A stretch of 64,000 nucleotides of DNA from Gammaproteobacteria bacterium. GTDB taxonomy: Bacteria > Pseudomonadota > Gammaproteobacteria > Pseudomonadales > Halieaceae. This document shows positions 21,928 to 51,447 of this stretch, one piece after another (within the stretch, counting starts at the first letter, position 1; the number at the start of each line of letters is the position of its first letter). A program made the translations under genes and the position numbers. The notes beneath the pieces were generated by a model. It was not told the origin of the DNA. It saw only the letters and a program-made list of their open reading frames with translations, and ran no database searches. Where the stretch lies: contig JAIBDN010000005.1 in assembly GCA_024686215.1 (NCBI GenBank), forward strand, positions 4,924 to 68,923, in the 5' to 3' direction.

Positions 21928-21940
21928 CCCCTCACTGAGA

Positions 21941-22465
21941 ATGACTATGCACAGGCGCCTCGTCAGTTACACCCTCCTATTGAGCCTGCCCCTGGTGCTC
22001 AGCGCCTGCGGCTTCCAGTTACGCGGCGTGGGCGATAATGCCACCACCCTGCCCGACGACTGGAAGAACATGCATCTTGTTACCAGCAACCCCAACGGCG
22101 AGTTTAGTCGTGAAGTGGAAACCCGTTTTGCCGCACAGGGCATACAATGGAACACCTGGGAAGATGCCAATTACCGATTGGACCTGGGGGCCGAGCGCTT
22201 CAGCCAACGCAATCTGTCACTTAATGCCGAGGCCCGGGTGGCGGAATTTGAGCTGACCATGACCGCGCGCTTCTCAGTGCTGGACGCCGACAACCAGGTG
22301 ATCATTGCAGCCACCGAGGTCGCCGTGGTCCGCCAGATGGAAAATGATCCGCGCAATGTGGTGGGCAAGGCCGAAGAAACCCGCATCATCAAGTCCGAGA
22401 TGCGCGGCGACCTGGCGCGACAAATCATGCGCCGCATCGGCTTCTTCGCTTCCAGCAACGGCTAA
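21941..22465 (+). CDS. lptE: LPS-assembly lipoprotein LptE
   Basis: Lipobox LVLSAC|G after MTMHRRLVSYTLLLSLP. Lies in the conserved leuS-lptE-holA order. The track ORF start at 21818 lies inside leuS. Confidence 0.85.
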   Translation: MTMHRRLVSYTLLLSLPLVLSACGFQLRGVGDNATTLPDDWKNMHLVTSNPNGEFSREVETRFAAQGIQWNTWEDANYRLDLGAERFSQRNLSLNAEARVAEFELTMTARFSVLDADNQVIIAATEVAVVRQMENDPRNVVGKAEETRIIKSEMRGDLARQIMRRIGFFASSNG

Positions 22466-23476
22466 ATGCGGCTCTACCCCGAAAAGCTCTCGACTCACCT
22501 GCAACAGCAACTGCTGCCAGTCTATCTGGTGAGTGGCGACGAGCCACTGTTGCTGCAGGAATACAGTGACCAGATTCGGCGGAAAGCACGCGAGCAGGGC
22601 TGCAGCGAGCGGGAGGTAATCGATGCCGGGGTTTCCGGCTTCAACTGGCAGGATATCCTGCACAGCGCCACCAGCATGTCATTGTTTGCCGAGCGCAAAC
22701 TGGTAGAACTGCGACTGCCTAGTGGTAAGCCCGGCGCCGAGGGCAGCAAGGCCCTGTGTGAATACCTGGATATCGCCAGCGGTGAAGACGTGTTACTGAT
22801 CATCGCCGGCAAAATCGACAAGCAATCCACCAACAGTAAATGGTACAAGGCACTGGACAAAGCCGGGGCCACTGTACAGGTGTGGCCGGTAGACGCCAAG
22901 GAACTGCCGCGCTGGTTGCAACAACGGGTGCGCAACGCCGGCATGAGCATCGATAACGACGCCCTGCAATTACTCTGCGAGCGCGTGGAAGGTAACCTCC
23001 TGGCTGCAGTACAGGAGGTAGAAAAACTCAAACTGCTGGCAACGGATGCGCAAATCACCGCCGCAACCGTCACCGCTGCAGTCTCGGACAATGCCCGCTA
23101 CAACCTGTTTGGCATGACCGACTGCGCCCTGCAGGGTGATGCCACTGCCAGCCTGCGCATGTTGCACGGGCTGCGCGGTGAAGGCAGCGAGCCCCCCGTC
23201 ATCCTTTGGGCGCTGCTACGTGAAATTCGCACACTGGTCCAGGCGCAGCAGGCCTGCGATCAAGGGCAAAGTCCGCAGCAGGCACTGACTTCTCTGCGCG
23301 TGTGGAAAAACCGTATGGCACTTATGCAGGGCGCCCTGTCGCGTCACGACAAATTATCGCTGGAGAATTTGCTGGAGCAGGCGGCACAGACCGATGGCAG
23401 CATCAAGGGATTTGCTGACGGCAAGCCCTGGGATAACCTGGAAACCCTGGTCGTCGAGCTCTCTGGCATCCAGTAA
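22466..23476 (+). CDS. holA: DNA polymerase III delta subunit
   Basis: 336 aa. Begins LYPEKLSTHLQQQLLPVYLVSGDEPLL. The ATG directly abuts the lptE stop. Confidence 0.9.
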   Translation: MRLYPEKLSTHLQQQLLPVYLVSGDEPLLLQEYSDQIRRKAREQGCSEREVIDAGVSGFNWQDILHSATSMSLFAERKLVELRLPSGKPGAEGSKALCEYLDIASGEDVLLIIAGKIDKQSTNSKWYKALDKAGATVQVWPVDAKELPRWLQQRVRNAGMSIDNDALQLLCERVEGNLLAAVQEVEKLKLLATDAQITAATVTAAVSDNARYNLFGMTDCALQGDATASLRMLHGLRGEGSEPPVILWALLREIRTLVQAQQACDQGQSPQQALTSLRVWKNRMALMQGALSRHDKLSLENLLEQAAQTDGSIKGFADGKPWDNLETLVVELSGIQ

Positions 23477-23630
23477 AATTCTGCGCCTGAAACTCAGGAT
23501 TTTCGCAGGCAACCATACCCAATTTCTCCGCCACCCTTACCACAGAGTGTACCTGTCGCTTTTTCAAGCCGATGCATTTTTGCCAATTTATACCCGTCAT
23601 CAAGGGCTTGTATTATTCTCAACTCACGAC

Positions 23631-23650
23631 TACTGTATATATGAACAGTG
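23631..23650 (+). promoter_or_regulatory. LexA (SOS) box upstream of imuA
   Basis: TACTGTATATATGAACAGTG fits the gammaproteobacterial CTGT-N8-ACAG consensus. It lies 31 nt upstream of the imuA ATG. Confidence 0.85.
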
Positions 23651-23665
23651 TATATAAACACAGTA
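23646..23665 (-). promoter_or_regulatory. second, weaker overlapping LexA-like box
   Basis: The reverse strand reads TACTGTGTTTATATACACTG, which matches TACTGTATATATATACAGTA at 16/20 positions. The second half-site is ACAC rather than ACAG. Confidence 0.45.
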
Positions 23666-23680
23666 TTCGGAGGCAGCATC

Positions 23681-24412
23681 ATGAACGAAGCATTGCAGCA
23701 GGTTATCAATCGTAACGACACCTGGCGTGGCAACCAGGGTCGCTTTGCCAATCAATTCCTGTCCGCCAATAGCGCGCAGCACCGGGATGACGGCAAGCTG
23801 CCCACCGGTTACTGCTCACTGGACAACGAACTACAGCAAGGCGGCTGGCCCCTGGGTAATACCATTGAGCTACTCAGTGATGGCTGCGGCCTCGGGTCCA
23901 TGGGACTGTTCCTGCCCGCCATGGAGGCTCTCAGTGCGCAGGGGCGCTGGCAGGTGTTTATCGCGCCGCCCTACACCCCCTATGCCCCCCTGCTGTCAGC
24001 GCGGGGTATCGATACGCAGCAGGTCCTGCTGGTACATCCAAAGTCCCGGGAGGACCTGTTGTGGGCCACCGAGCAGGCACTGCGCAGCAGCACCTGCAGC
24101 GCGGTTTTCAGCTGGCTGGGCAGCCACAATTACAGCTACACCGAGCTGCGTAAACTGCAGTTGGCCGCCGCCAGCGGCGACAGCCTGGGAATATTGTTCC
24201 GCCCCAACCAGGCCGCCCACAACCACTCCCCGGCCAGCCTGCGATTGCAAATGCGCGAATACCGCAAGGTGCACATCCTCAAGCAGCGCGGGGGCAACCA
24301 GGACATCGATGTGGATCTACCCCCTTCAGAGGATGTGCCACAGCAACCGCAATTGTGGGAGCTGCCCGCCTGGAACAGTGATCTGGCGCAACAGAGCACA
24401 GCTCTGGCGTAG
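23681..24412 (+). CDS. imuA: translesion-synthesis-associated protein ImuA (SulA/RecA-like)
   Basis: Matches Pseudomonas ImuA in pattern (PTGY..LD..L.GGWP...IAPPYTPYAP...LWATEQALRS..C.AV..W...ELRKLQLAA...FRP...SPASLRL...ILKQRGG). A GGAGG RBS precedes ATG 23681. SOS box upstream. Confidence 0.8.
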   Translation: MNEALQQVINRNDTWRGNQGRFANQFLSANSAQHRDDGKLPTGYCSLDNELQQGGWPLGNTIELLSDGCGLGSMGLFLPAMEALSAQGRWQVFIAPPYTPYAPLLSARGIDTQQVLLVHPKSREDLLWATEQALRSSTCSAVFSWLGSHNYSYTELRKLQLAAASGDSLGILFRPNQAAHNHSPASLRLQMREYRKVHILKQRGGNQDIDVDLPPSEDVPQQPQLWELPAWNSDLAQQSTALA

Positions 24413-24529
24413 AACCTGCTGCAGCCCTGTGCACAACAGGGCTGCAAAGATCTATACTGCTCCCCTGGTGAACGTGACTGCGCCATCGCAGCATGTCAGC
24501 CTGACCACACGCAATACAGGGGAAAAGTC

Positions 24530-24967
24530 ATGCAGGATCTGCCACACCACTACCACGTCAACGCCAATGCCGAAGCCCAGGGCAACATCGTCCTGAAAAC
24601 AGATAACCTGCCACAATTGATCTCCGCTCCCCCGGCAGAATTCGGCGGGCCCGGCGATCAGTGGTCACCAGAGCACCTACTGGTGGCATCTGTGGCCGAC
24701 TGCTTCATCCTTACTTTCCGGGCCATCGCCAGAGCCTCGAAACTGGAATGGAGCAACCTGGAAAGCTCCGCTACCGGCGTACTGGATCGCGTCGATCGGG
24801 TGACCTGTTTTACCGGATTTACGGTAACGGCCACACTGACACTGCCTGCAGGCAGTGATAGCAGCAAAGCCCAACGCCTGCTGGAAAAAGCCGAGGGAGC
24901 CTGTCTGATCACCAATTCGCTGACAGCTGAAGTCCACCTGGAAACCGAAATCATTGTCGCGTCCTGA
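24530..24967 (+). CDS. OsmC/Ohr-family protein
   Basis: 145 aa. Contains the OsmC-like blocks SPEHLLVASVADCF and AEGACLITNSL. Confidence 0.8.
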   Translation: MQDLPHHYHVNANAEAQGNIVLKTDNLPQLISAPPAEFGGPGDQWSPEHLLVASVADCFILTFRAIARASKLEWSNLESSATGVLDRVDRVTCFTGFTVTATLTLPAGSDSSKAQRLLEKAEGACLITNSLTAEVHLETEIIVAS

Positions 24968-24982
24968 AACGGGAGCCACCCC

Positions 24983-25441
24983 ATGGATACAGACCTGACC
25001 GGCAGTTGCCAATGCGGTGCTGTCGCTTTCACGGTGGCGACAGCGCCGCTGCTCACCTATGCCTGCTTCTGCCACAGCTGCCAGAAACGCACCGGTAGTG
25101 CTTTCAGTATGGGCTTGATTATTCCCACAGAGGCCCTGCAGCTAAGCGGTGATCTCACCGCCTGGAGCCGCACGTCGGATGATGGCAACAGCAACACCCG
25201 CTACAGTTGTAGCGACTGCGGTAATATCATCTACGGTGTCGGCGAATCCAGTCCGGGCCTGGCCAAATTGCAGGCGGGCTTACTGGAGGACACGCGTAAC
25301 GTTGAGCCTGAAGTGTATATCTGGGCAACCAGCAAGCAATCCTGGGTGACCCTGCCAGCACACGCCCAACCCTTCGACACCCAACCGGACGATGCCATGG
25401 AAATGCTGGCGGCCGCCCAGACCTACCGCGAGGCACGCTAG
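24983..25441 (+). CDS. GFA (CENP-V/glutathione-dependent formaldehyde-activating) family protein
   Basis: 152 aa. The Cys pattern CQCG...CFCHSCQKRTGS...CSDCG is typical of the GFA zinc sites. Confidence 0.8.
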   Translation: MDTDLTGSCQCGAVAFTVATAPLLTYACFCHSCQKRTGSAFSMGLIIPTEALQLSGDLTAWSRTSDDGNSNTRYSCSDCGNIIYGVGESSPGLAKLQAGLLEDTRNVEPEVYIWATSKQSWVTLPAHAQPFDTQPDDAMEMLAAAQTYREAR

Positions 25442-25444
25442 TAC

Positions 25445-25651
25445 ATGGATGAGTGGCTCACTGAATACGGTGTCACCCTTGGCGTGGGCGCCCTTATCCT
25501 GTTTATGCTGTTTATCGTGTGGGATCTGGCCAAGCGCAGCAACGCCGGCAAATTCGGCACCATGATTCTCTATATAGGCCTGGCCATGGGCATCGCCGGC
25601 TTCTTGATGAAGTTCATCATCACCTACCTGCTGGAAAACGCGGGGGTGTAG
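25445..25651 (+). CDS. small two-TM membrane protein (DUF2788-like)
   Basis: 68 aa with two hydrophobic helices. It starts 3 nt after the GFA stop. Confidence 0.65.
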   Translation: MDEWLTEYGVTLGVGALILFMLFIVWDLAKRSNAGKFGTMILYIGLAMGIAGFLMKFIITYLLENAGV

Positions 25652-25736
25652 ATCAGTGAGCGAGGTTAAGGGCCGCTCCCGGTATTACTCGCTCCATTGA
25701 TTACCAGGCAATGATGCTGGCAACCCTATTTGCGGC

Positions 25737-26045
25737 TTATTTCTCTGCCACCATATCGGTGCGAATCTGATACTCGGTGATTTCCTGTTCGTACTGCCCG
25801 GATAGCGCAGACACCCTCGCTGCCAGGGCACGATGCTGCCGACTATTCATCACCTTACAATCCATATAGGCCTCTGCCTGCAGTATGTAGCTCTCCGCAG
25901 CGAGTTGCGCCTCATACATGTCCTCTTTGCTTGCGACTGCGCCGTCGGGCAGCACTGGGGCGTCGCCCGGCCTTTTCACAGGGCAGGCAGCAGAGGTATT
26001 CAACGCCGCTAACATCAGGGCGGTTGCGAGTACGGTCTTCATCAT
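25737..26045 (-). CDS. hypothetical exported protein
   Basis: 102 aa. Signal peptide MMKTVLATALMLAALNTSAA, a GGAGG RBS, and two Cys in the mature part. I recognise no family. Confidence 0.6.
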   Translation of the reverse strand: MMKTVLATALMLAALNTSAACPVKRPGDAPVLPDGAVASKEDMYEAQLAAESYILQAEAYMDCKVMNSRQHRALAARVSALSGQYEQEITEYQIRTDMVAEK

Positions 26046-26394
26046 AAGACCCTCCTTTTGTAACTATAAGTAACATTACTTATGTGTTGTTACCAACTAT
26101 CCACATTTAGCCCTGCACACGCAATGCATTTATTATGATTTATTGGCTAAAAATCCCCTTAAAATTACCTGTATTTATTGTGATCCAGTAGCTCATCACA
26201 CGCACCACTTTGTAACATTTAGTAACAAAAAACACCAAGCCTACCCTGAGGCCAGTGTATTCGCCGCAATAGTGACCAACGCACACCCTGCAATTCGAAT
26301 ATACGAGGGAGGAAGGTCGCTATTATCCGCCTGCCGCACAGCCCATGGATGTTCGGCAGTAGACAAGCCTCCCGGTATCCCTAATACTGTATAT

Positions 26395-26414
26395 ATGTAC
26401 AGTACAATCTATAT
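26395..26414 (+). promoter_or_regulatory. LexA (SOS) box upstream of imuB
   Basis: TACTGTATATATGTACAGTA is a perfect palindromic CTGT-N8-ACAG box. It lies ~43 nt upstream of the imuB start. Confidence 0.9.
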
Positions 26415-26456
26415 AATGGGGACATTGCCCCCGCCAAATAATGTCCCACACCCACG

Positions 26457-27893
26457 GTGGACCAGGTGAGCCTGTGGCTTTGCCTGCGCTTTGCGCAACT
26501 ACCCTTGCAATGCCTGAGCCACACCGAAGACCAGCCGGTGATAGTGCTGGCGGGGCAGCGCGTGGTATGCGCCAACGACTGCGCCGCGACTCTGGGCATA
26601 CAAGCGGACATGACCAGCGCCACGGTGCGGGCACTGGCCGGGACCGATCCGGTACAACTGCTGGAAAGAGACGAGACTGCCGAGCAACGCCGCCTGCAAC
26701 AGCTGTGTTGCTGGGCATACAGCATCACTCCCACACTGCATACCTGGCGCAAGGATTGCCTGCAACTGGAAATCGGCGGGTGCCTGAACCTGTTCCAGGG
26801 ACTCGGCGCCCTGCTGGCGGAAGTGCGCAGCGGCATAGGCAAGCGCGGCTATTGCGCGCAATATGGCCTGGCGCCGACGGCCAAAGCTGCATGGCTACTG
26901 TCTTTTGCTGATGACGATACTGCGGCCGCCATACAACACCCCCTGGAAGAGCGCCTCGCCCCCCTCCCCCTGCGCTTACTGGATGACTTCTCCCCCACGA
27001 TAGACTCCCTGCGCCGCGCCGGACTACACTCCCTGGGCGACATCCTGGCGCTGCCACCAGCGGCACTGGCGCGTCGCTGCGGCAAAGCATTCACCCATTT
27101 TCTGCAGCAGATGCTGGGACAGCTGGAAGACTTGCAGATACATTACCAACCGCCCACCACTTTCAGCGACGAATACTGGTTCGGTTACGAGGTGAAGGCG
27201 AATGCTGAATTGTTGCCAGCGGCGCAGTTGTTGCTGCAATCACTGTGCCGTTTCCTGCGCAACACCCAGCTACAGACCAGCGAGATAACCTGGCAACTGG
27301 TAGGTATTGATCACCGGGTACATGAGGTCGCCGTGCGCAGCACCAGCAGCCACAGCGACTGGAGAAACTGGCATCAGCTCACCCGCATTCGCTTTGAACA
27401 ACTGCAACTGACCAACAGCGTGGAAGGCCTGACCCTCACCAGCCGGCAACTGCATGCCGGCGAGCTGGACAGCATCGACCTGTTCAGCCCCGCCAGCCAA
27501 CGCGAACCTCTGGCCGCCCTGCTGGATCGCCTGGGCAGCCGCCTGGGGCTTCAGGCAATCGAGAAAATAGGCTACCGCGACGAGCACCTGCCGGAACTGG
27601 CACTGCATATCAGCAACGACAGCGCCGGGGAAGCGCACGGCAATGAACCAGACTGCGCCCAGCGCCCTTTCTGGCTAATGCCACAGCCCCAGCTCCTGCG
27701 ACAGCAACGCCAGCAGTTGTACTGGAAGCGCGCACTCAAACTGCTATATGGCCCGGAACGTATTGAAGATAACTGGTGGCAAGAGGCGATCAGCCGCGAC
27801 TATTACATCGCCACGGATGACCTGGGGCAACACTACTGGATATTTCGCGATCGACTGGCGCAGCAGTGGTATATCCACGGAGTGTTTGCCTGA
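26457..27893 (+). CDS. imuB: Y-family polymerase-like protein ImuB
   Basis: 478 aa. The LWLCLRF...LPLQ N-terminus is typical of ImuB, it has its own SOS box, and it partners with imuA/dnaE2. Start is GTG 26457 or GTG 26466. Confidence 0.85.
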   Translation: MDQVSLWLCLRFAQLPLQCLSHTEDQPVIVLAGQRVVCANDCAATLGIQADMTSATVRALAGTDPVQLLERDETAEQRRLQQLCCWAYSITPTLHTWRKDCLQLEIGGCLNLFQGLGALLAEVRSGIGKRGYCAQYGLAPTAKAAWLLSFADDDTAAAIQHPLEERLAPLPLRLLDDFSPTIDSLRRAGLHSLGDILALPPAALARRCGKAFTHFLQQMLGQLEDLQIHYQPPTTFSDEYWFGYEVKANAELLPAAQLLLQSLCRFLRNTQLQTSEITWQLVGIDHRVHEVAVRSTSSHSDWRNWHQLTRIRFEQLQLTNSVEGLTLTSRQLHAGELDSIDLFSPASQREPLAALLDRLGSRLGLQAIEKIGYRDEHLPELALHISNDSAGEAHGNEPDCAQRPFWLMPQPQLLRQQRQQLYWKRALKLLYGPERIEDNWWQEAISRDYYIATDDLGQHYWIFRDRLAQQWYIHGVFA

Positions 27894-27954
27894 ACCTGCG
27901 CATCATGGGAACACCCAGCAAGGGCCGCGGTTAAAATTTCACCGGGAATCGTAA

Positions 27955-28113
27955 CTAGCGGGTGATCAGCCACAGCGCATGCAAGATACCCGGCACATAG
28001 AAGAACAGGCATAGCACAATATTAATCAACAGGTCCTTGCCCGCGCCATTGTTCAAAAACACAGCAACCGGCGGTAACAGGATCGCGAGAATCATCAGTA
28101 TCGCTTTATTCAT
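27955..28113 (-). CDS. YqaE/Pmp3-family small membrane proteolipid
   Basis: MNKAILMILAILLPPVAVFLNNGAGKDLLINIVLCLFFYVPGILHALWLI. The 52-aa form starting at ATG 28113 matches the family size. Confidence 0.8.
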   Translation of the reverse strand: MNKAILMILAILLPPVAVFLNNGAGKDLLINIVLCLFFYVPGILHALWLITR

Positions 28114-28200
28114 AACACTATTCCCTATAGACAATAAAAATGGCAAACATCAGGGCTCTACCTATGCATAGGCCGGCGACAAATTTTTGTGTGTCGGCTT

Positions 28201-28677
28201 TCATGCTGACGGTTGCCCTATTTCTGCAAAGATACCACCCACCAACTGCACCAGATCATCAGGGGCCAGCTCAATTTCCAGGCCCCTGCGGCCCGCGCTG
28301 ACATAAACCGTTTGGTGGTTTCTGGCGGATGTATCAATCACCGTTTTCAGGCGTTTTTTCTGTCCCAGCGGACTGACGCCACCCAGAACGTAACCGGTTG
28401 AACGCTCCACATCGACCTGCGCAGCCATCACCACCTTCTTCGCACCGGCCGCCCTGGCCATGGCTTTGAGACTGAGCATGGCGCATACCGGCACCACCGC
28501 TACAGCCAGGAATGCATTATCCAGGCTCACCACCAGGGTCTTGAATACCCGCTGTGGAGATACTCCCAGCTTCTCAGCCGCTTCCAGCCCATAGGACTCA
28601 CTGGCAACTGCATGCGCATATTCATGTATTTGATACTCAAGCCTGGCCTGCCTGACGATATTCACTGCTGGTGTCAT
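28201..28677 (-). CDS. ybaK: Cys-tRNA(Pro)/Cys-tRNA(Cys) deacylase YbaK
   Basis: 158 aa. YbaK/EbsC-type blocks (FKTLVV; GYVLGGVSPLGQKK). Confidence 0.85.
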   Translation of the reverse strand: MTPAVNIVRQARLEYQIHEYAHAVASESYGLEAAEKLGVSPQRVFKTLVVSLDNAFLAVAVVPVCAMLSLKAMARAAGAKKVVMAAQVDVERSTGYVLGGVSPLGQKKRLKTVIDTSARNHQTVYVSAGRRGLEIELAPDDLVQLVGGIFAEIGQPSA

Positions 28678-28811
28678 GTCATCCTTATTTGCTGTCGGGC
28701 CGCGCTATGCATGAAATCATTCCCGGCTGCGATAGCCGCCCATTTAAGACAATACGCAGGGCTATAACAAGCCCGCAGGAACAACAGACTTGAAATAATT
28801 GAATTATCATA

Positions 28812-28831
28812 TACTGTATATATATACAGTA
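28812..28831 (+). promoter_or_regulatory. LexA (SOS) box upstream of dnaE2
   Basis: TACTGTATATATATACAGTA is identical to the E. coli-type consensus. It lies 26 nt upstream of the dnaE2 ATG. Confidence 0.9.
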
Positions 28832-28856
28832 TTGCTGAATATCCCCCAAACCATAT

Positions 28857-31800
28857 ATGCCCTACGCCGAACTTCACTGCCTCAGCTGCTACAGCTTCCT
28901 GCGCAGCGCTTCCCACCCACAGGAACTGGTGGAACGCGCCGCACAGCTGGGTTATAGCGCATTGGCCATCACTGACGAGTGCTCCCTGGCGGGGGTGGTA
29001 AAAGCCCATGTAGCGGCAAAAGCACTGGACATGCAGCTGATTATCGGCAGTGAACTGCAACTGGATGAAGGCATTCGCCTGCTGGCGCTGGCACCGTCAA
29101 GGGCCGCCTACAGTGAGTTGTCCGGGCTGATCAGCATGGCCCGGCGACGCAGCCCCAAAGGGCAATACCGGGCGGCACTGCGCGATGTCATGTTCCACCT
29201 CAAACGTTGCCTGCTGATCTGGCTGCCTGACGCTGATAACGAGACCAATCGTGCCTGGGGCCAGCAGTTACAACGCCTGTGCAAGCAGCGGGTATGGCTG
29301 GGTATCAGCCACCTGCTGGGTAACAATGAGGTGGCACGCTACCAGTCACTGTGCCAGCTGGCTGCAGTTACCGGCCTGCCTATGGTCGCCTGTGGCGATG
29401 TACAGATGCACTGTGCCACACGCAAACCCTTGCACGATGTATTCACCGCCCTGCGCCATAACACCAGTATCGAGCAACTGGGTCGGCGGCGACTGGGCAA
29501 CAGCCAGCAACACCTGCGCGACCTGCACAAGCTACAGCGCCTATATCCCGCCGCACTGCTACAAGAGACTTTGCACATCGCCGGTTTGTGCAATTTTACT
29601 CTGGACGAATTGCGCTACGAATATCCACAAGAGGTAGTGCCATCGACATACACAGCCAACAGCTACTTGCGAGAACTGGTCACCAGCGGCGCGGCCATGC
29701 GCTGGCCTGCGGGCGCGCCACCTGACATACAACAGCGTATTGAGCGGGAACTGCTACTGATACAGGAACTGGAATACGAGTATTACTTTCTCACCGTGTA
29801 CGACATCGTGCGCTTTGCCCGGGAGCGCGATATTCTGTGCCAGGGGCGGGGCTCGGCGGCCAACTCGGTGGTGTGCTATTGCCTGTTCATCACCGAGGTC
29901 TCACCCGAACAGATATCCCTGCTGTTCGAGCGCTTTATCTCCAGGGAACGGGACGAGCCTCCTGATATCGATGTGGACTTCGAACACGAGCGCCGTGAAG
30001 AAGTCATCCAGTACATCTATCGCAAGTACAGCCGCAAGCGCGCGGCGCTGGCCGCCACCATCATCACCTACCGTTCGCGCAGTGCCGTGCGCGATGTGGG
30101 CAAGGCACTGGGCCTGGATCCGGTATTCGTGAATGACCTGGCCAAATCACTGGCCTGGTGGGACCGCAGCGCAGACCTGGCTAAACGCTTTGAGGAACAG
30201 GGCGTCGCACAACACAGCCGTCAGGCCGAGTTATTCTACCGTCTGGTACAGGAAATTCTCGGCTTCCCCCGCCACCTGTCACAACATGTAGGTGGCTTCG
30301 TCATTACCCGCAGCCCCATCTCCACCCTGGTGCCCGTGGAGAACGCCAGCATGGCAGAGCGCACGGTGATCCAGTGGGACAAGGAAGACATAGAATCCCT
30401 GGGCCTGCTGAAAGTAGACATCCTGGCACTGGGCATGCTGTCCGCCATCCGCAAGAGCCTGCAACTGGTGCATCGCTACCAACCCGGCATCAAAACTATC
30501 GGTGATGTTCCCAGGGAGGATCAGCCTACCTACCGCATGTTGCAGGCCGCCGACACCGTCGGCGTATTCCAGATAGAGTCCCGGGCTCAGATGTCCATGC
30601 TGCCGCGACTTAAACCGGCATGCTTTTACGACCTGGTGATAGAAATCGCGATCGTGCGCCCTGGGCCAATACAGGGGGATATGGTGCATCCCTACCTGCG
30701 CCGCAAGCAGGGCCTGGAGCAGATTACCTACCCCAGTGAGGCCATCAAGTCAGTGCTGGAACGCACCCTGGGAGTACCGATTTTCCAGGAGCAGGTGATC
30801 CGACTGGCCATGGTGGCAGCGGGCTTCAGTGGTGGTGAAGCAGACCAGTTGCGCAGGGCCATTACCAACTGGGGCAGAAACAGCAAACTACTCACCTTCG
30901 AGAAGAAGCTCACCCGGGGCATGATCGAACGTGGCTACGACGAGGATTTTGCCCGACGCTTATTTGAACAGATCAAGGGCTTTGGCGGCTACGGCTTTCC
31001 CGAGTCCCACTCTGCCAGCTTTGCCCTGCTGGCCTATGTCTCAGCCTGGCTCAAGTGCCACCACCCGGCGGCTTTCTTCGCCGGCTTGCTCAACAGTCAA
31101 CCCATGGGGTTTTACAGCCCTTCACAGCTGGTGCAGGATGCGCGCCGCCACGGCGTCAGCGTATTGCCGGTGGATATCAACCAGAGTGACTGGGACCACC
31201 AACTGCTGGACAGCCGCCAGGGCTTGTCAGCGCAGCCGCCATTGCGACTGGGCCTGCGCCTGGTAAAAGGCCTGAGCAGGGAAGGGGCACAACGTATCGT
31301 GGAAGCGCGCAGGCAAGCGCCCTTTCGCCAGGTCAGTGAGTTACGCCAGAGAACCCGCCTGGATAAACGCGATATGGAGGCCCTGGCAGACGCCGATGCC
31401 TTGCGCTCATTAAGTGGTCACCGCCACCAGTCCCAGTGGCAGATTATGGCCCTGGAGCAAGCGCGGCCACTGCTGCAGGACGAACTGCAACAGCCGGCCA
31501 GTTATTTCGATGATGCCGTGCAGTTACCTGCACCACAGGTCGCAGAAGAAGTACTGTCAGATTACCGCGCCACTGGCCTCACCCTGCGCGCCCACCCCAT
31601 GAGCCTGTTGCGTGAACGTTACCCGTTCAATCGTTGCAAACGCCATACGGACCTGGAAGATATTGGCAACAACCGTTTCGTGCGCATCGCCGGACTGGTC
31701 ACCTGCCGGCAGCGCCCGGGCAGTGCCTCCGGTGTGTTATTTCTTACACTGGAAGACGAAACCGGCAGCAGTAATATCGTGGTATGGCAGCGCACTCAGC

Positions 31801-31955
31801 AACAATTTCGCCAGGCGCTGATGACAGCACAGTTGCTACTGATCAAGGGCACAGTTGAAACCAAGGACAATGTCATTCATGTAATCGCCGGCGCATTGCA
31901 CGATTACAGCAACGAGTTGCAAGCGCTACAGCTTAGCTCGCGCGACTTCCGCTGA
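28857..31955 (+). CDS. dnaE2: error-prone DNA polymerase III alpha-like subunit DnaE2 (ImuC)
   Basis: 1032 aa. PHP domain start MPYAELHCLSCYSFLRSAS, pol III alpha core, and a size typical of DnaE2 rather than DnaE1. Confidence 0.95.
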   Translation: MPYAELHCLSCYSFLRSASHPQELVERAAQLGYSALAITDECSLAGVVKAHVAAKALDMQLIIGSELQLDEGIRLLALAPSRAAYSELSGLISMARRRSPKGQYRAALRDVMFHLKRCLLIWLPDADNETNRAWGQQLQRLCKQRVWLGISHLLGNNEVARYQSLCQLAAVTGLPMVACGDVQMHCATRKPLHDVFTALRHNTSIEQLGRRRLGNSQQHLRDLHKLQRLYPAALLQETLHIAGLCNFTLDELRYEYPQEVVPSTYTANSYLRELVTSGAAMRWPAGAPPDIQQRIERELLLIQELEYEYYFLTVYDIVRFARERDILCQGRGSAANSVVCYCLFITEVSPEQISLLFERFISRERDEPPDIDVDFEHERREEVIQYIYRKYSRKRAALAATIITYRSRSAVRDVGKALGLDPVFVNDLAKSLAWWDRSADLAKRFEEQGVAQHSRQAELFYRLVQEILGFPRHLSQHVGGFVITRSPISTLVPVENASMAERTVIQWDKEDIESLGLLKVDILALGMLSAIRKSLQLVHRYQPGIKTIGDVPREDQPTYRMLQAADTVGVFQIESRAQMSMLPRLKPACFYDLVIEIAIVRPGPIQGDMVHPYLRRKQGLEQITYPSEAIKSVLERTLGVPIFQEQVIRLAMVAAGFSGGEADQLRRAITNWGRNSKLLTFEKKLTRGMIERGYDEDFARRLFEQIKGFGGYGFPESHSASFALLAYVSAWLKCHHPAAFFAGLLNSQPMGFYSPSQLVQDARRHGVSVLPVDINQSDWDHQLLDSRQGLSAQPPLRLGLRLVKGLSREGAQRIVEARRQAPFRQVSELRQRTRLDKRDMEALADADALRSLSGHRHQSQWQIMALEQARPLLQDELQQPASYFDDAVQLPAPQVAEEVLSDYRATGLTLRAHPMSLLRERYPFNRCKRHTDLEDIGNNRFVRIAGLVTCRQRPGSASGVLFLTLEDETGSSNIVVWQRTQQQFRQALMTAQLLLIKGTVETKDNVIHVIAGALHDYSNELQALQLSSRDFR

Positions 31956-36239: not shown

Positions 36240-38159
36240 ATGAAATCTACCCTTTTGAGTGCCAGCGCACTGGCAGCCACATTGAGCGCTTTAGTGTTAC
36301 CGGCACAAGCGCAGGTACCTGTGCCGCCTGACGGGCAGATACTGTCCAAAGCGTATACAGGCACCGCCTATTCGCCTTACGCCGGGCGCGATTTCGCCAC
36401 CAATGTCTATTGGGGAGATACCCACCTGCATACCGATATCTCCATGGACGCCGGTGCCTTTGGCAACCGTCTGGGCCTGGATGAAGCCTACCGTTTTGCC
36501 CGCGGTGAACAGGTAGAGTCTACCAATGGCGGCCCTGCTCGCCTGTCCAGGCCGCTGGACTTCCTGGTGGTCGCCGACCACTCCGATAATATGGGGTTTT
36601 TCCCCGACATGCTGTCTGGTGCGCCGCATATTCTCTCCAACCCCACGGGCAAGGACTGGTATGAGCGGATTAAGGCCGGTAAAGGGGTAGGAGTAGCCAT
36701 AGAGTTGATCGGGAAATTCTCACAGGGAACCTTCGATCCCGGCCTGGTTTATACCCCGGACTCACAACCTTATAAGGATGCCTGGGCCAAGACTGTGGAT
36801 GCCGCGGAACGCTATAACGAACCCGGACGCTTTACCGCACTTATAGGCTATGAATGGACCTCACTGGTGAAGGGTAACAATATGCACCGGGTAGTGGTGT
36901 ACCGCGACGGCGGCGACAAGGGCGGCAGCATGGTGCCGTTCACCACTATTGCGCCACAAGGCAGCACCACGCCGAGCGACTTGTGGACCTGGCTGGAGAA
37001 CTACGAGGCCAAAACCGGCGGTGATGTGCTGGCCATCGCACACAACGGCAACCTGTCCAATGGCATCATGTTCCCCATGATAGAACAAAGTGACGGCAAA
37101 GCACTGGACAAAAACTGGGCCCAGCGCCGCGCCAAATGGGAAAAACTGTACGAAGCCACCCAGATCAAGGGTGACGGCGAGACACATGCATTCCTGTCCC
37201 CGAACGACGAGTTTGCTGACTATGAAACCTGGGATATCGGCAACCTGGATGTCTCTGAGGCCAAGACCGACCAGATGCTGGCCGGCGAATATGCCCGCGA
37301 AGCGTTAAAGCGCGGCATGGAACTGGAGGCAAAGTTCGGCACCAATCCTTACCAGTTCGGCATGATAGGATCCACCGATAGCCACACTTCACTGGCTACT
37401 GCCCAGGAAGACAACTTTTTTGGCAAACACTCCGGTGCGGAGCCTGGCCCGGAGCGCATGGTCCACCCTTTCATGAAGAATGAGAACGGCACCATCATGG
37501 GCTGGCAACAGGTAGCGTCCGGACTGGCAGGTGTATGGGCGCGCGACAACACGCGAGAAGCGCTGTTTGACGCCATGGAGCGCAAGGAGACCTACGCCAC
37601 CACAGGCAGTCGCATGAGGGTGCGCATGTTCGGCGGCTGGAACTTCACCCTGGCGGACCTGAACAATCGGCAGCCGGCCTTTGCGGGTTACAGCAAGGGC
37701 GTGCCAATGGGCAGCGAGCTGCCTCCCAAGGACATGAAACAGTCCCCCAGCTTTATGGTATTCGCTTTGCGCGATCCCCAAGGCGCCAATCTGGATCGTA
37801 TCCAGATCATCAAAGGCTGGCACGATGGCAAGCAACTACAGGAAAAGGTTTACGATGTGAGCTGGTCGGATGAGCGCAAACCCGACAATAACGGCAAGCT
37901 GCCTGCGGTTGGCAATACAGTGAACGTCGCGAATGCCTCCTGGAGTAATAGCATAGGCGCTGCAGAACTGGGCACCGTGTGGTCTGATCCTGACTTCAAC
38001 CCGGCGCACCGGGCCTTTTATTACGCGCGCGTACTGGAGATCCCCACCCCACGCTGGTCTACTCACGACGCCTTGCGCTTTGGTGTCGATATTCCCGAAG
38101 GGGCACCCACCAGCACGCAGGAGCGGGCCTATACCTCGCCTATCTGGTACAAGCCCTAG
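36240..38159 (+). CDS. exported DUF3604-family protein
   Basis: 639 aa. Signal peptide, then the WGDTHLHTDISMDAG block typical of DUF3604 (PHP-like metal site). Confidence 0.8.
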   Translation: MKSTLLSASALAATLSALVLPAQAQVPVPPDGQILSKAYTGTAYSPYAGRDFATNVYWGDTHLHTDISMDAGAFGNRLGLDEAYRFARGEQVESTNGGPARLSRPLDFLVVADHSDNMGFFPDMLSGAPHILSNPTGKDWYERIKAGKGVGVAIELIGKFSQGTFDPGLVYTPDSQPYKDAWAKTVDAAERYNEPGRFTALIGYEWTSLVKGNNMHRVVVYRDGGDKGGSMVPFTTIAPQGSTTPSDLWTWLENYEAKTGGDVLAIAHNGNLSNGIMFPMIEQSDGKALDKNWAQRRAKWEKLYEATQIKGDGETHAFLSPNDEFADYETWDIGNLDVSEAKTDQMLAGEYAREALKRGMELEAKFGTNPYQFGMIGSTDSHTSLATAQEDNFFGKHSGAEPGPERMVHPFMKNENGTIMGWQQVASGLAGVWARDNTREALFDAMERKETYATTGSRMRVRMFGGWNFTLADLNNRQPAFAGYSKGVPMGSELPPKDMKQSPSFMVFALRDPQGANLDRIQIIKGWHDGKQLQEKVYDVSWSDERKPDNNGKLPAVGNTVNVANASWSNSIGAAELGTVWSDPDFNPAHRAFYYARVLEIPTPRWSTHDALRFGVDIPEGAPTSTQERAYTSPIWYKP

Positions 38160-39136
38160 TCGATAGACTCGAAGAAGGCCCAAAGGACCTCAGCCGTATT
38201 GAATTCATGGCTGGGGCGGCCCAATATCCTGGGGCCGCTATAGTCAGGGTGGGGGATACCGTGTCCTCCACCCTCCACGGTCACTAACTCCACGGGGAGC
38301 AGGCCGGCGGCCTGCCAGCGCTCACTGTGTACCGAAGTACCGTCACCAGGGTCCCGATTCGGCCACTTGCGCTTGTCTCCGTCTCCGCTATAGCCTGCCA
38401 ACTCAGCCCAGTAGGCAACGCTGGCGCCGGCCGATTGCACTGCGCCCCTGCTGGTATCACCAAACAGATCGACGACACCTCCCGGATAGGGGTTCACCGG
38501 GTCTTCGGTACCATTGACAATAATGGTGGCCACCGGCTCCCCGCTGGCCTCGCATTCTGAATTCCCCTCCACTGGCAGGTTGGCCGCGATAGCGCCAATG
38601 CCCCTGACCAGCTCAGGTGCTTCAAAACCCAGGCGATAGGCCATATGGCCCCCGTTGGATATACCTGCCGCATAAACCCTGTCGGGGTCGGCAGCGTAGA
38701 GGCTGACCAAGGTTGCTGTCAGCCCGCGTAAATAACCCACATCATCGATACCCAGGGTATTCGCAGAAAAAGCAGCACTCGCGCGGCAATCGTTCCAGTG
38801 CCCTTCAAATCCCGATGGATAAACCGCAATGAACCCTTTCTGCTCAGCGAGGCGATCAAAGCTGTAAAAGCTGCCCGTGCGCATTTGCTCTCCCGAGTGC
38901 TTTGATCCTCGAAGCAGCAGTAGCAGTGCAGGTTTCTCATCTACCGACTGTGGAATATAGGCCAGCCACTCGCGCCGCCTGCCATCATGTTCCAGGCTTC
39001 CTCGCTCGATGACGCCGGGCAGCTGCGGTGGCGGCAACTCATCCCAGCGCAGGAACCACCAGGCCAGCACAGCGATTACGATGCACGCCAGCACCAGCAG
39101 GCACGCCAGTATTTTTAAAAATTTACCCATGCGCAT
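38156..39136 (-). CDS. membrane-anchored esterase of the PHB-depolymerase (LpqC-like) family
   Basis: 326 aa. N-terminal TM anchor and a GISNGG nucleophile elbow. The stop shares a CTAG tetranucleotide with the DUF3604 stop. Confidence 0.7.
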   Translation of the reverse strand: MRMGKFLKILACLLVLACIVIAVLAWWFLRWDELPPPQLPGVIERGSLEHDGRRREWLAYIPQSVDEKPALLLLLRGSKHSGEQMRTGSFYSFDRLAEQKGFIAVYPSGFEGHWNDCRASAAFSANTLGIDDVGYLRGLTATLVSLYAADPDRVYAAGISNGGHMAYRLGFEAPELVRGIGAIAANLPVEGNSECEASGEPVATIIVNGTEDPVNPYPGGVVDLFGDTSRGAVQSAGASVAYWAELAGYSGDGDKRKWPNRDPGDGTSVHSERWQAAGLLPVELVTVEGGGHGIPHPDYSGPRILGRPSHEFNTAEVLWAFFESID

Positions 39137-39178: not shown

Positions 39179-39922
39179 ATGCAGCGAATATACCTAAGCC
39201 CGGCCGTGCTTGCCTGCATCCTGCTGGTTTTAACGGCACTGGCAGCCGGTGCGGAGAATGATGACATGGCCGAACAACGACAAGCCATGCTGGAAGCGGT
39301 GCGCGAATCTGTCCGCCAGAGTGAGGACTACACCGGCTACAGTGAACTCAGCGACAACGTCATGCTCGCCATGGGCACTGTCCCCAGGCACGAATTTGTC
39401 GCGCCCGTGCACCGCGACCTGGCTTATCGCAACACGCCACTGCCCATCGAGTCGGGACAGACGATTTCACAGCCGCTGATCGTGGCCCTGATGACCGAAC
39501 TGTTGCAGCCACAGCCCGGCGACGTGATCCTCGAAGTGGGCACGGGCTCCGGCTATCAGGCGGCGGTGCTGGCAGAGCTGGTCAAGCACGTCTACAGCAT
39601 AGAAATCATTGAGGAACTGGCCACCAGCGCAGCGCAAACCCTGCAGCGACTCAACTACGACAATGTCACCGTACGCGCCGGGGACGGCTATGCAGGCTGG
39701 CCGGAACACGCCCCCTTCGACGGCATCATCGTTACCGCAGCCGCGGAGCACCTGCCCCTGCCCCTGTTGCAACAGCTCAAGCCGGGAGGCAAGCTGGTGA
39801 TTCCAGTGGGTGAGCATGACGGCTACCAGGAACTAATGCTGGTGGAGGTGGACGAGAACGGGGACGTCAGCCGCGAGTCGGTATTGCCGGTGCGGTTTGT
39901 GCCCCTGACCGGCGATCGATAA
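39179..39922 (+). CDS. pcm: protein-L-isoaspartate O-methyltransferase with N-terminal signal peptide
   Basis: PIMT blocks (VPRHEFV, GQTISQP, LEVGTGSGYQAAVLA). It carries a ~35-aa N-terminal extension that looks like a secretion signal. Confidence 0.85.
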   Translation: MQRIYLSPAVLACILLVLTALAAGAENDDMAEQRQAMLEAVRESVRQSEDYTGYSELSDNVMLAMGTVPRHEFVAPVHRDLAYRNTPLPIESGQTISQPLIVALMTELLQPQPGDVILEVGTGSGYQAAVLAELVKHVYSIEIIEELATSAAQTLQRLNYDNVTVRAGDGYAGWPEHAPFDGIIVTAAAEHLPLPLLQQLKPGGKLVIPVGEHDGYQELMLVEVDENGDVSRESVLPVRFVPLTGDR

Positions 39923-39955: not shown

Positions 39956-41055
39956 TTACAGCGGAGAACGCCCCTTGTTAGCCGCAATACGCATGCGCAA
40001 GGCATTGAGCTTGATAAAGCCCTCGGCATCGGCCTGGTTGTATGCACCGGCATCATCTTCAAAGGTGGCAATGCTCGCGTCAAACAGGCTGTCAGCTGAC
40101 TGGCGACCAACCACCATGACATTACCCTTGTACAGTTTAAGCCGTACCTTACCGTTAACCACGGTTTGTGAGTCGTCAATCGCAGCTTGCAGCATGCGGC
40201 GCTCCGGCGACCACCAGTAGCCGTTGTAAACCAGCTTGGCGTAGCGCGGCATCAATTCGTCTTTCAGGTGGGTAACTTCCCGGTCCAGGGTTAGCGACTC
40301 TACAGCGCGGTGTGCCTTAAGCATAATGGTGCCGCCGGGGGTCTCATAGCAGCCGCGGGCCTTCATCCCGACATAGCGATTTTCCACAATGTCGTCACGG
40401 CCAATGCCGTTGGCGCCACCCACTTTATTCAGCTGTTCCAGCACCGTAGCCGGGCTCATGGCCTGGCCATCTATGGCAACGATATCGCCGCGCTCAAAAT
40501 CCAGTTCGATATAGGTAGGTTGATCGGGCGCGCTTTCAGGACTGACCGTCCAGCGCCACATATCGTCTTCGGGTTCAGCCCAGGGGTCTTCCAGGATGTC
40601 GCCCTCGTAAGAAATGTGCAGCAGGTTGGCGTCCATGGAGTAAGGGGACTTCTTCTTGGCGGTGGAGTAATCAACTGGAATATTGTGAGTCTCACAGTAG
40701 GCCATCAACGATTCACGCGAACCCAGGTCCCACTCGCGCCAGGGTGCGATGACCTGGATGCCCGGCTTAAGTGCGTAAGCGCCCAGTTCAAAGCGCACCT
40801 GGTCATTTCCCTTGCCGGTTGCGCCATGGGAAATACGAAATCGCGCACGAATTCCTCACGCAGGTCGTCGATGTAGATTTCCTTGATCCCCATCGCCTGC
40901 GCCTTGGCACGGGCTGGCTCGACCTCTTCGCCCTGGCCAATATCAGCAGTGAAGGTGACCACCTCACAGGCATAATTGTCCTGCAACCAGCGGACAATGA
41001 CCGAAGTGTCCAATCCACCGGAATAAGCCAGGACAACCTTGTTTACATCTGACAT
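39956..41055 (-). pseudogene. argG: argininosuccinate synthase disrupted by an internal frameshifting deletion
   Basis: The N-terminal part ([19 protein letters not shown]...[12 protein letters not shown], from ATG 41055) and the C-terminal part ([23 protein letters not shown]... to 39956) are in different frames. They join at CCCATGG (40824..40830). About 39 conserved residues (FRAN.VYEG.YLLGTS.ARPLIAK...) are missing. Confidence 0.8.
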
Positions 41056-43783: not shown

Positions 43784-46382
43784 CCGGACCCAACGGCTTG
43801 ACCAGGAGAATCAACCGCGGCAGTAATAACAAGGCACCCAAAACAGCCGCAATCATCGCCAGTACGGTGAGCAAACCAAAATAAATACTGGGGTTGAAGT
43901 TGGACAGCGTCAGGGTGGAGAAACCTATCACTACGGTGACCGTGGTGTAGTAGACCGCCCGCCCAATACTGCTGTGACAACGATACAGTGTGGCCCGATA
44001 ACTCCGATCCACCTTAAACTCTTGCGTAAAGCGGTGCACATAGTGAATGCAGTCATCGACACCAATACCCACCACAATGGCCGCAATGGTTATGGTCATG
44101 ATATCCAAAGGAATACCGACCAGGCCCATCACGCCCAGAACCATACCCGCGGCCAGCAGATTGGGCGCCAGGGCAATCAACGCCAGGGAAAATGAACGAA
44201 ACAGGATCAGGAACATCAGCAATATGGCCAGGAATACCACCCCCAGGGTGAGTATTTGCGAACGGAACAGACTCTGCAACACGTTGTTATACAGCACCAG
44301 CATACCGGTAAACTGCACCTGTTCCGGAGCAAAGCCCATGTCGTCGATAAGATGCGCATGCAGGTCTTGCAGGAATTGGTCTCTGCGCAGGTTCTCGCTG
44401 GTCTCCTTGACCCGAACGGTAATCCTGGCCTGCTCCGCCTCGTCGGAGAAGTAGGGGGAGACCATCATTTGTTTGATATCGTCTGGCAGACTTTTTTGCA
44501 CGATAGCCAGCTCGACACCACCGATGTCATCGCCCAGCAGATTTTTCACTGCCGCAAAAACGGTAGACAGTGACAGCACCTTACCGGTTTCCGGCAGTGA
44601 GTCTATGTAGTTGTGCGCGGCGTCCAGCTCGCGCATTCCTTCCAGGCTGAACCAGTAACTAGGCACAAAGGCTTCTTCGGCGCTGGCAAACTCATCGTAG
44701 TCGCTAGAAAATTCATCGTCCCACTCTTCTTCGCCAGCGGCATCGACTGCAGCAGTGGCATCTCCGAAGTCATCAAACTCTTCTGCGAAAGGGTCATCAG
44801 CGGCCACTGGCAGCGTATCGGCAGCCGCTGCATTCAGCTCGAGACCGGGTAGTGGGGCATCCTGGTCCGGGGGAGTGAGGATAATATCCAATGGAATGGT
44901 GCCGCCCAGGCGCGAGTCCAGCAGTTCCATGCCCTGGTATATTTCCGTGGACTTGTGGAAATAGTCGATGAAGCGATTTTCGACTTCCAGACGACTAATA
45001 CCCAACAGGGTTAACGCGACCAAGATGCCGGTGACCAGAAAGATTGCACGACCAAAGTGGTCCGCGAGACGCGCAAAGTGCGCCGTCAGCACCGGGTCAC
45101 TGCCCGAGTGATGGTGCGGCTTGCCGGTTGGCCATACCAACATCAGACAGGGCACAATGGTAAAAGCCATCAACAGAGCCACCACAATACCTGTCGTCAT
45201 CATCCAGCCAAAATCAATGACCGGCTGAATTCCGGACACCACCAGGGACATAAAGGCGACGATCGTGGTGATGCCGGTATAAAAGCAGGGAATCGCCATT
45301 AGCTGCATACTGCGCACTACACGGTCGTGTAAATCTCCATCCGGGTCTTCCGCGTGCAACTCCCTGTAGCGCACAATCAGGTGAATGGATATCGCCAGGG
45401 TGATAATCAACAGCACCGCCACGAAATTGGAGGAAATAACCGTCATACGCCAATCCAGCGCGCCCAGTAATCCCAGCATAATTACCACGGTGGCGGAGCA
45501 GGTCACCAGCGGAATCACCACCCAGCGCACCCGCCTGAAGATAATCGCCAGGGCAACCAGCATAATCCCCAGAATGGCAGCGCCGAATACCACCAGGTCG
45601 CTGCCGACAAAGCTGACCATATCCACCGCGATCATCGGCACACCGCCAACAAACACACTGGCATATGCTGAGTAACGCGCGGCAACCTCGCGAACCTCTT
45701 GCACCAACTTGGCCTGGGCATCCAGCGACACCACAGTATGCGCTTTGAAGGCCGCCTCCACTTCGCGCAGTTCACGCTTTTCCTGGCTGGAGAGGCCCTC
45801 GCTATCGCGCTGCATGCGCAGGGCTTCTCGCCTACCCAGTAAATCGTAATAGAACTCGTCAAACTCCAGGTTGATTTGCACTGCACTGACCTTGCCGTCA
45901 CGGCTGGCCAACAAATCGGCGTAGATCGGGCTGGTGGTCAGTTCGCGCAGCACCAGTTCCAGGTCGATCCCCTCCTGGCGCAGGCTGGGCAAAGGCTCCG
46001 GTGAAGTAATATCCGACAGCGTAACTGGCGGGCTCTCCAGCAGGGGCACATCCAACACCGTTACGACCGAAGACACCCCCGACAAGGCGCGCAACTCCTC
46101 GGCCATCTGGTCAAGAGGCTGCAGGGAAGCGGGGGCCAGCAGTTCCGCATAGGGCTGCCAGGTGATAATCAGGAAGTCTTCAGAGCTGTATTGCGTGCTG
46201 ATCTTGCGATAGAACTCCAGTGCCGGGTCGCCCTGCAGCATCAGCGAATCAGCTGACGCATCCAGCTCTATCTTATGCAGTTGCGTGGAAAAACCGCCCA
46301 CCAGAAGCGCAATCAGCAGCAGTGCCAGGCGAGGCCGGCGCAAAATCAACCAGTCGTAGGCATTGAGCAACATATCAATCAC
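43761..46382 (-). CDS. RND/MMPL-superfamily transporter (12 TM, two large periplasmic loops)
   Basis: 873 aa. Two repeated 6-TM bundles of the MMPL / sterol-sensing-domain type, plus an acidic low-complexity loop. Confidence 0.8.
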   Translation of the reverse strand: MIDMLLNAYDWLILRRPRLALLLIALLVGGFSTQLHKIELDASADSLMLQGDPALEFYRKISTQYSSEDFLIITWQPYAELLAPASLQPLDQMAEELRALSGVSSVVTVLDVPLLESPPVTLSDITSPEPLPSLRQEGIDLELVLRELTTSPIYADLLASRDGKVSAVQINLEFDEFYYDLLGRREALRMQRDSEGLSSQEKRELREVEAAFKAHTVVSLDAQAKLVQEVREVAARYSAYASVFVGGVPMIAVDMVSFVGSDLVVFGAAILGIMLVALAIIFRRVRWVVIPLVTCSATVVIMLGLLGALDWRMTVISSNFVAVLLIITLAISIHLIVRYRELHAEDPDGDLHDRVVRSMQLMAIPCFYTGITTIVAFMSLVVSGIQPVIDFGWMMTTGIVVALLMAFTIVPCLMLVWPTGKPHHHSGSDPVLTAHFARLADHFGRAIFLVTGILVALTLLGISRLEVENRFIDYFHKSTEIYQGMELLDSRLGGTIPLDIILTPPDQDAPLPGLELNAAAADTLPVAADDPFAEEFDDFGDATAAVDAAGEEEWDDEFSSDYDEFASAEEAFVPSYWFSLEGMRELDAAHNYIDSLPETGKVLSLSTVFAAVKNLLGDDIGGVELAIVQKSLPDDIKQMMVSPYFSDEAEQARITVRVKETSENLRRDQFLQDLHAHLIDDMGFAPEQVQFTGMLVLYNNVLQSLFRSQILTLGVVFLAILLMFLILFRSFSLALIALAPNLLAAGMVLGVMGLVGIPLDIMTITIAAIVVGIGVDDCIHYVHRFTQEFKVDRSYRATLYRCHSSIGRAVYYTTVTVVIGFSTLTLSNFNPSIYFGLLTVLAMIAAVLGALLLLPRLILLVKPLGPDADDEVS

Positions 46383-50722: not shown

Positions 50723-51447
50723 ACAACGCCCTCTTGCGCAGCCTGTGGTGGGTCCAGAGTGAAAGGCAGGGGTGTGGTCAGCACTATAGCGCCAGGCGTC
50801 ACTCGCGCGCCCCAGGCCTGCACTTCAACACCGTCGGACATGACCTCGCATAAGGCATCGCGGTAGCGCGGGTCGATATCTCCGGCAGCACTGACATGGT
50901 CGATCCCCTGGTGCAATACACAGAAAAACAACACTGCCCGGGTACGCTTATCCAGCACCGAGCGCAGGGCATACAGGTGCTTACGGCCACGCTCGCTTAC
51001 AGCATCGGGAAAAACACCCAAAGAGCCCTCGCGGCACAGCGTCACGGATTTCACTTCGACAAAGACAGCGCCAGCGTCTCCCTCCAGCAGCAGGTCAGCG
51101 CGACTGCCGCCCGCGTATTTCACTTCTGAACGAATATCAGGATACCCTGCAAAACCCGGCACTACACCCGCGACAAAAGCCTCGCGCACCACCTGATTGG
51201 CCTTTGCTGAATGGATGCAGGCCATACCACGGCTGGTTTCCACCAGTTCCCAGGTGTGCGGATACTTGCGCGTTTTCGAGTCGCTGCGCGACAACCACAC
51301 CGGCGACCCCGGTTCAGCACAACCGGTCATAGCACCGGTATTCGGGCAATGTACGGTGATCATTTCACCTGTGGGCAGTTCCACATCCGCCAGAAAGCGC
51401 TTGTAGCGGCGTAATAACTTGCCCTGCTGCAGAGCTGTAAAATCCAT
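50719..51447 (-). CDS. sfsA: sugar fermentation stimulation protein homolog
   Basis: 242 aa. The start GKLLRRYKRFLADVELPTGEMITVHCPNTG is typical of SfsA. Confidence 0.9.
   Translation of the reverse strand: MDFTALQQGKLLRRYKRFLADVELPTGEMITVHCPNTGAMTGCAEPGSPVWLSRSDSKTRKYPHTWELVETSRGMACIHSAKANQVVREAFVAGVVPGFAGYPDIRSEVKYAGGSRADLLLEGDAGAVFVEVKSVTLCREGSLGVFPDAVSERGRKHLYALRSVLDKRTRAVLFFCVLHQGIDHVSAAGDIDPRYRDALCEVMSDGVEVQAWGARVTPGAIVLTTPLPFTLDPPQAAQEGVV

Follow-up and report, generated by a model that had tools for sequence, protein, structure and literature searches.

Is the argG gene of this marine, Halioglobus-like bacterium broken, and, if it is, was it given up by the lineage, damaged in one strain or altered on the way to the sequence record? 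The question concerns a single locus in the 64,000-nt stretch of DNA that we analyzed (hereafter the window), for which the original prediction proposed a frameshifting internal deletion of about 121 nt in argG and offered these three explanations. The ORFs, translations, Pfam matches, and tblastn alignments at the locus, together with the wild contigs described below, define the following features:

39956–41055, minus strand: argG pseudogene (argininosuccinate synthase, type I), 1100 nt compared with 1221 nt in the intact gene
40825–41055, minus strand: native N-terminal part, codons 1–77 (M1 to M77), with the SGGLDTS ATP pyrophosphatase loop; its 3' end lies inside the repeat copy
40825–40835, minus strand: deletion junction, the sole surviving copy of an 11-nt repeat (TATTTCCCATG on the gene strand, CATGGGAAATA on the plus strand)
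40705–40824, minus strand: end of the N-terminal product, translated out of frame into 39 aberrant residues (AQPAREMT...RVNR), with the stop codon at 40705–40707
39956–40834, minus strand: C-terminal part, codons 115/117–406 and the stop codon, shifted to the +1 frame with respect to the start codon
41056–41137, no strand: divergent intergenic region between argG and a dihydroorotase-like (pyrC-type) gene, unchanged relative to the wild contigs
39179–39922, plus strand: PCMT-family methyltransferase, the convergent downstream neighbor of argG (ORF list and wild-contig gene calls)

Translation of the minus strand gives two argG frames that are 1 nt out of register, and an uninterrupted frame of about 400 aa is absent. 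The first begins at the ATG at 41055 (MSDVNK...) and ends at the stop codon at 40705–40707 after 116 aa in total. The second, offset by one base, is open to the stop codon at 39956–39958; it carries the C-terminal part of argG without the native start, and the nearest in-frame start in the ORF list is a GTG at 40798. The Pfam profile PF00764 is split between the two fragments, with profile positions 1–76 in the first (the N-terminal HUP/ATP-pyrophosphatase domain with AYSGGLDTS, E = 3.4e-24) and 113–162 in the second. Positions 77–112 are missing, leaving the nucleotide-binding domain (profile 1–162) incomplete, and the C-terminal synthetase domain is complete (PF20979, profile 1–218 of 219, E = 2.1e-82). 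The ORFs, the translations, and the split profile thus agree with the prediction that two ArgG blocks lie in different frames, and its coordinates are correct. By its domains the gene belongs to the ArgG family (PF00764 plus PF20979), of which it is predicted to be a pseudogene rather than a functional member. No second argG was found within the window by tblastn with the intact protein.

The intact form of the gene was obtained from wild contigs of the same species, which we gathered from ENA, JGI, and Logan assemblies via the exact protein of the neighboring methyltransferase (39179–39922). Every contig that spans the junction has an argG call of approximately 402–410 aa, and wherever the gene is complete the protein has 406 aa, with one start call giving 410 aa. 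In tblastn, the intact protein and the window are 100% identical at residues 1–77 and 115–406. At the nucleotide level, blastn of the wild contigs against the window returned two ungapped blocks of 99.6–100% identity, one ending at 40835 and the other restarting at 40825, with 110 extra contig bases between them. The Logan contigs, when aligned to the window, split at the junction with an 11-nt overlap, and those of runs X1–X4, X8, and X31 split likewise with a 121-nt surplus. In runs X7 and X67, the consensus of the loose ends before 40825 (TTCACCCTCGTACACGGTATTCGCCCGGAA) is that of the intact spacer. The noisy long-read contig L098 also holds the lost segment without a gap.

These comparisons fix the deletion at exactly 121 nt, made up of one 11-nt repeat copy and a 110-nt spacer. 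On the gene strand the intact locus reads ...GTA TTT CCC ATG TTC CGG GCG AAT ... GAC GCT ATT TCC CAT GGC GCA ACC.... In each of the eight intact loci extracted, TATTTCCCATG occurs as two perfect copies at a distance of 121 nt; the window keeps one of them, within the junction string TTTCCCATGGCGCAACC. Because 121 = 3 × 40 + 1, the deletion shifts the reading frame. The lost coding block comprises residues 78–116, and these 39 conserved residues are exactly the ones whose absence had been anticipated from Pseudomonas ArgG. The proposal of a CATG or CCATG microhomology was right in placing the deletion between short direct repeats and fell short on their length, since the repeat is a perfect 11 nt and not 4–5 nt.

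We then considered what the missing block means for the enzyme. The intact protein matches ArgG structures with E values of 2.7e-192 (4NZP) and 9.8e-168 (1J1Z), and the lost residues align gap-free to residues 74–112 of T. thermophilus ArgG (PDB 1J1Z family) and 77–115 of human ASS (PDB 2NZ2). In the latter alignment Tyr88 here faces human Tyr87 (2NZ2 chain numbering, +1 offset), which is listed as a direct citrulline contact in a description that defines residues 1–172 as the nucleotide-binding domain (PMC13289927). The deleted block takes this citrulline-contact Tyr88 and the LLGTSIARP motif from the nucleotide-binding domain, in agreement with the expectation that substrate-binding residues had been lost. 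Immediately beyond the junction come Thr119, Asn123, Asp124, and Arg127, which contact aspartate and citrulline; they are out of frame with the start codon. Given the loss of substrate-binding residues and the frameshift, the window allele is predicted to be null.

An activity retained by the shortened gene, through an in-frame isoform, ribosomal frameshifting, or two complementing fragments, is hardly conceivable. Both fragments are perfect in sequence and translation from the GTG at 40798 could give a C-terminal fragment of 280 aa, but 121 is not a multiple of 3, and a frame-corrected product would still be short of 39 invariant residues in the nucleotide-binding domain, the citrulline-contact tyrosine among them (PMC13289927). 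Moreover, no such form occurs in any of the 79 related species.

An argG mutant needs arginine, and citrulline, being the substrate of ArgG, would not rescue it. Judged from the gene content of the window, the strain would need external arginine unless another argG lies outside this stretch. Peptone or yeast-extract media and cross-feeding communities readily support bacteria that cannot make arginine. No polar effect of the deletion is expected, since no gene follows argG in its transcription unit, the downstream neighbor being convergent and the upstream one divergent. The neighbors of argG, a pyrC-like dihydroorotase gene and rnt, resemble the arrangement in Pseudomonas.

Several features of the neighborhood were recorded alongside argG. 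A C/A polymorphism at 41183, just beyond the argG-side intergenic region, could lie within the 5' or upstream portion of the pyrC-like gene; the A allele is found in X1–X4, L083, and L084, and the C allele in the window, L081, L082, and L085. The PCMT-family protein (protein-L-isoaspartate O-methyltransferase-like, 39179–39922, plus strand) has a hydrophobic N-terminal leader, MQRIYLSPAVLACILLVLTALAAGAEND, suggestive of export or membrane anchoring, which would be unusual for Pcm. Farther along, a 639-aa DUF3604 protein (36240–38159, plus strand, E = 4e-243) adjoins a 326-aa protein (38156–39136, minus strand) that has an N-terminal membrane or signal segment and no Pfam match, and both are kept in all wild contigs. 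The window also contains SOS mutagenesis genes of the imuA/imuB/dnaE2 type on the plus strand, namely a SulA/ImuA-like gene (23648–24412), a Y-family IMS gene (ImuB-like, 26457–27893), and a gene for a 1032-aa second Pol III alpha subunit (DnaE2-like, 28857–31955). This cassette is non-contiguous, with OsmC, GFA, and DUF2788 genes intervening.

With the defect defined, we asked how widely it is shared. The 34-nt string of the intact junction is present in 10 fetched loci from eight distinct samples, and an intact argG was found throughout the same-species material, 99.6–100% identical to the window, from eight assembled samples and from the Logan contigs of eight runs. Among related species in a GTDB scan, the lost segment is present and in frame in all 79 that could be tested, with the motif (E/T)Y(L/R)LGTS(I/V)AR(P/S) nearly invariant; close relatives that naturally lack the segment in frame, a possibility raised together with the prediction, were thus looked for and did not appear in this set. 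The best matches of the scan, at about 90% amino acid identity, come from Halioglobus MAGs, and the window's own species is absent from the results. Five ENA/JGI contigs encode the intact 406-aa protein, and no NCBI genome does. The species itself is cosmopolitan and very homogeneous: more than ten studies of marine, seawater, salt-marsh, marine-sediment, and coral-reef metagenomes contain its DNA with an identity of at least 99.7%, and its longest wild contigs are shorter than 50 kb.

These data bear directly on the first explanation, in which the species or clade has given up arginine synthesis, through genome reduction or as an adaptive auxotrophy, leaving argG as a fixed pseudogene. Marine bacteria are commonly auxotrophic as a matter of general knowledge, and we found no support for such a loss in this species. 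The intact alleles of the wild samples and of the related species refute a species-wide loss of arginine synthesis, and the remnant itself carries no secondary mutations and sits among intact neighbor genes of the same lengths as in the wild contigs. We regard a lineage-level loss as very improbable, and a genuine loss of the pathway as a lineage trait can be set aside.

The next question was whether the window is a reliable sequence. Wild contigs around three further window genes were fetched, and all wild contigs were aligned to the window. The alignment covers 5721–11509, 12465–30601, and 33179–60722 (about 51 kb) at 99.7–100% identity, and the lengths of the genes on the wild contigs equal those of the window ORFs, including the neighbors of argG. 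Relative to the clean short-read wild contigs, the argG gap is the sole indel on the window side over these 51 kb. A single 1-nt gap was assigned to contig L091, as L092 and L093 agree with the window, and four further gaps are confined to a divergent tract of L081. Because the argG gap is the only indel over this distance, general assembly noise and genome decay are both excluded: the window is neither a noisy consensus nor a decaying genome. Overlapping ORFs at 23.6–24.6 kb and at 60.7 kb, considered as further frameshifts, proved spurious in view of the wild gene calls and the absence of indels over 12465–30601 and 33179–60722. Another apparent ORF overlap lies at about 61.9 kb, beyond the wild-contig coverage, which ends at 60722.

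Substitutions tell more about the identity of the sequenced genome. In the 43,156 positions covered by at least three samples, the window has 19 private substitutions, and 109 sites are polymorphic relative to it; the window is a distinct genotype and not simply one of the sampled metagenome populations. None of the private substitutions falls in the argG remnant, compared with about 0.5 expected in 1100 nt. The remnant has not decayed further, which indicates that the deletion is not ancient and is equally compatible with an artefact. Two other patches of divergence were seen. At 51146–51379 the window carries four private substitutions in 234 nt (51146, 51196, 51376, and 51379), against a background of about 1 per 2.3 kb, a pattern suggestive of a short tract acquired by import or recombination. 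The divergent tract of contig L081 lies across the napA/napD/napE end (34677 to about 36200), where identity is only 98.9%, with the four gaps, compared with about 99.9% elsewhere, probably through within-species recombination.

We next examined the repeat. Among the direct repeats of the intact 1221-nt argG the 11-mer is the longest, and just one other reaches 9 nt or more, its copies lying 517 nt apart. When the codons of the gene are shuffled, 8% of the resulting versions contain a direct repeat of 11 nt or more within 200 nt. The repeat is thus unremarkable in itself, and what is diagnostic is that both endpoints of the deletion coincide with it, as those of a random or software-generated deletion would not. 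At the homologous site the related species have microhomologies of 3–8 nt, which marks the hotspot as incidental to the codons that this species uses for V-F-P-M and A-I-S-H-G. Hairpin-assisted slippage was rejected, as the deleted segment folds no better than its shuffles (z = −0.65). RecA-independent deletion between close short direct repeats is well documented in vivo in E. coli (PMC7145654, citing e.g. Chedin et al. 1994), and the candidate routes are replication slippage and template switching in post-replication gaps (PMC7145654). The anatomy of the argG deletion fits this process.

A plausible course of events can be outlined from these elements. The ancestral codons for V-F-P-M (residues 74–77) and A-I-S-H-G (residues 113–117) form, by chance, the perfect 11-nt repeat, whose copies are separated by 121 nt from start to start. 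The nascent strand would then have paired with the wrong copy while the DNA was being replicated or a gap filled, by a route that we infer to be slipped-strand mispairing or RecA-independent template switching. The outcome would be the deletion of one repeat copy together with the 110 nt between the copies, and the frameshifted allele would yield only the 116-aa truncated peptide from the native start and, in consequence, a dead enzyme.

The same junction could in principle have been made outside the cell. In this alternative, a polymerase switched template between the 11-nt repeats during whole-genome amplification (MDA of a single cell or of low-input DNA), library PCR, or cloning, or the assembler picked a minority variant, and the real argG is intact. 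In-vitro template switching by polymerases leaves the same microhomology signature as slippage in vivo, and the lack of further decay in the remnant is what a fresh artefact would also show. The distribution of the allele is in keeping with this alternative as well, with the deletion in one public record only and every other sample intact. The frameshifted 116-aa product is recorded exactly once among about 15 billion proteins, on a single NCBI contig of 70,909 bp that must be the window's own record, and the deleted allele appears to be private to one assembly. Scans of the JGI metagenome_contigs gave no match to the deleted junction; the intact control also gave none despite its presence in 10 fetched loci, and these scans carry no weight here. 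In a run search with a junction-only query, in which 19 of the 39 possible 31-mers are junction-specific, all runs held three of the four sampled words and none held all four, and the word missing from all runs would be a junction word.

In run searches with the argG stretch and with a stretch of private SNPs, no indexed run contained 100% of the words, the best shares being 0.95 for the former and 0.91 for the latter. Four sediment runs (X43, X44, X47, and X50) hold the 44265/44280 alleles in a run search over 44235–44310, and the argG of the window's organism was not found in them. Nor was the organism found in the raw-read runs X23 and X24 or in run X42.

Against an in-vitro origin stands the requirement that the chimera dominate the read pile to reach the consensus, which would be unusual unless the event fell very early in MDA or coverage was very low, and no other chimeric join or indel accompanies it over the 51 kb. 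An assembler, for its part, could not make the junction from the repeat: assemblers work with k-mers and overlaps longer than 11 nt, which renders a classical mis-join unlikely. The assembly or consensus error among the proposed explanations fares poorly on these grounds, the repeat being too short and the rest of the aligned sequence free of indels, and we consider an artefact of any of these in-vitro kinds unlikely, though not negligibly so.

The remaining explanation of the three, a strain-specific mutation, is the best supported. The otherwise clean sequence, a repeat too short for a mis-join, the distinct genotype of the window, and the ease with which auxotrophy is tolerated together favor a genuine allele, and the sequenced strain or population probably carried a recent and private argG null allele. 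The cells themselves would then have carried the deletion before any in-vitro step. A further reading goes beyond this one and takes the 11-nt repeat as a species-specific slippage hotspot in argG that repeatedly or locally yields arginine-auxotrophic, cross-fed lineages, with the deletion dominant in a natural sample. We put it forward only tentatively and hold it to be rather doubtful.

A private argG mutation has practical consequences for the use of this genome. For annotation and quality control, the argG of this record is best marked as a pseudogene with an internal 121-nt deletion and a frameshift. The species may have no NCBI genome other than the window's, and a metabolic reconstruction from this genome would wrongly infer that the species is auxotrophic for arginine, whereas the sampled wild populations are all intact. 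If the mutation is real, it offers a textbook example of a direct-repeat deletion and a hint that the strain needs arginine in defined media. If the reading as a recurrent hotspot were true, the locus would be a natural example of auxotrophy emerging within an otherwise prototrophic species.

Overall, the phenomenon is of a kind already known, an ordinary direct-repeat deletion that leads to a pseudogene, probably private to the strain. As in the deletions between short direct repeats described in E. coli (in lacI and in Lovett-type assays; PMC7145654), one copy is kept, the spacer is lost, and the length of the deletion equals repeat plus spacer. In contrast to the plasmid assays of repeat deletion, which typically use repeats of about 101 bp, the argG repeat of 11 nt is at the short end, and the argG event is known from sequence alone. 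Compared with the type I ArgG of gammaproteobacteria (Pseudomonas-type, about 405 aa) and with 4NZP, 1J1Z, and human ASS1 (2NZ2), the species' intact allele is a full-length enzyme of 406 aa, whereas the window copy is frameshifted and without residues 78–116. The case also resembles strain-private auxotrophies, whether acquired in the laboratory on rich media or through Black Queen-type loss, in that a single biosynthetic gene is inactivated while conspecifics are prototrophic. As in those cases, the loss would be tolerated wherever arginine is supplied.
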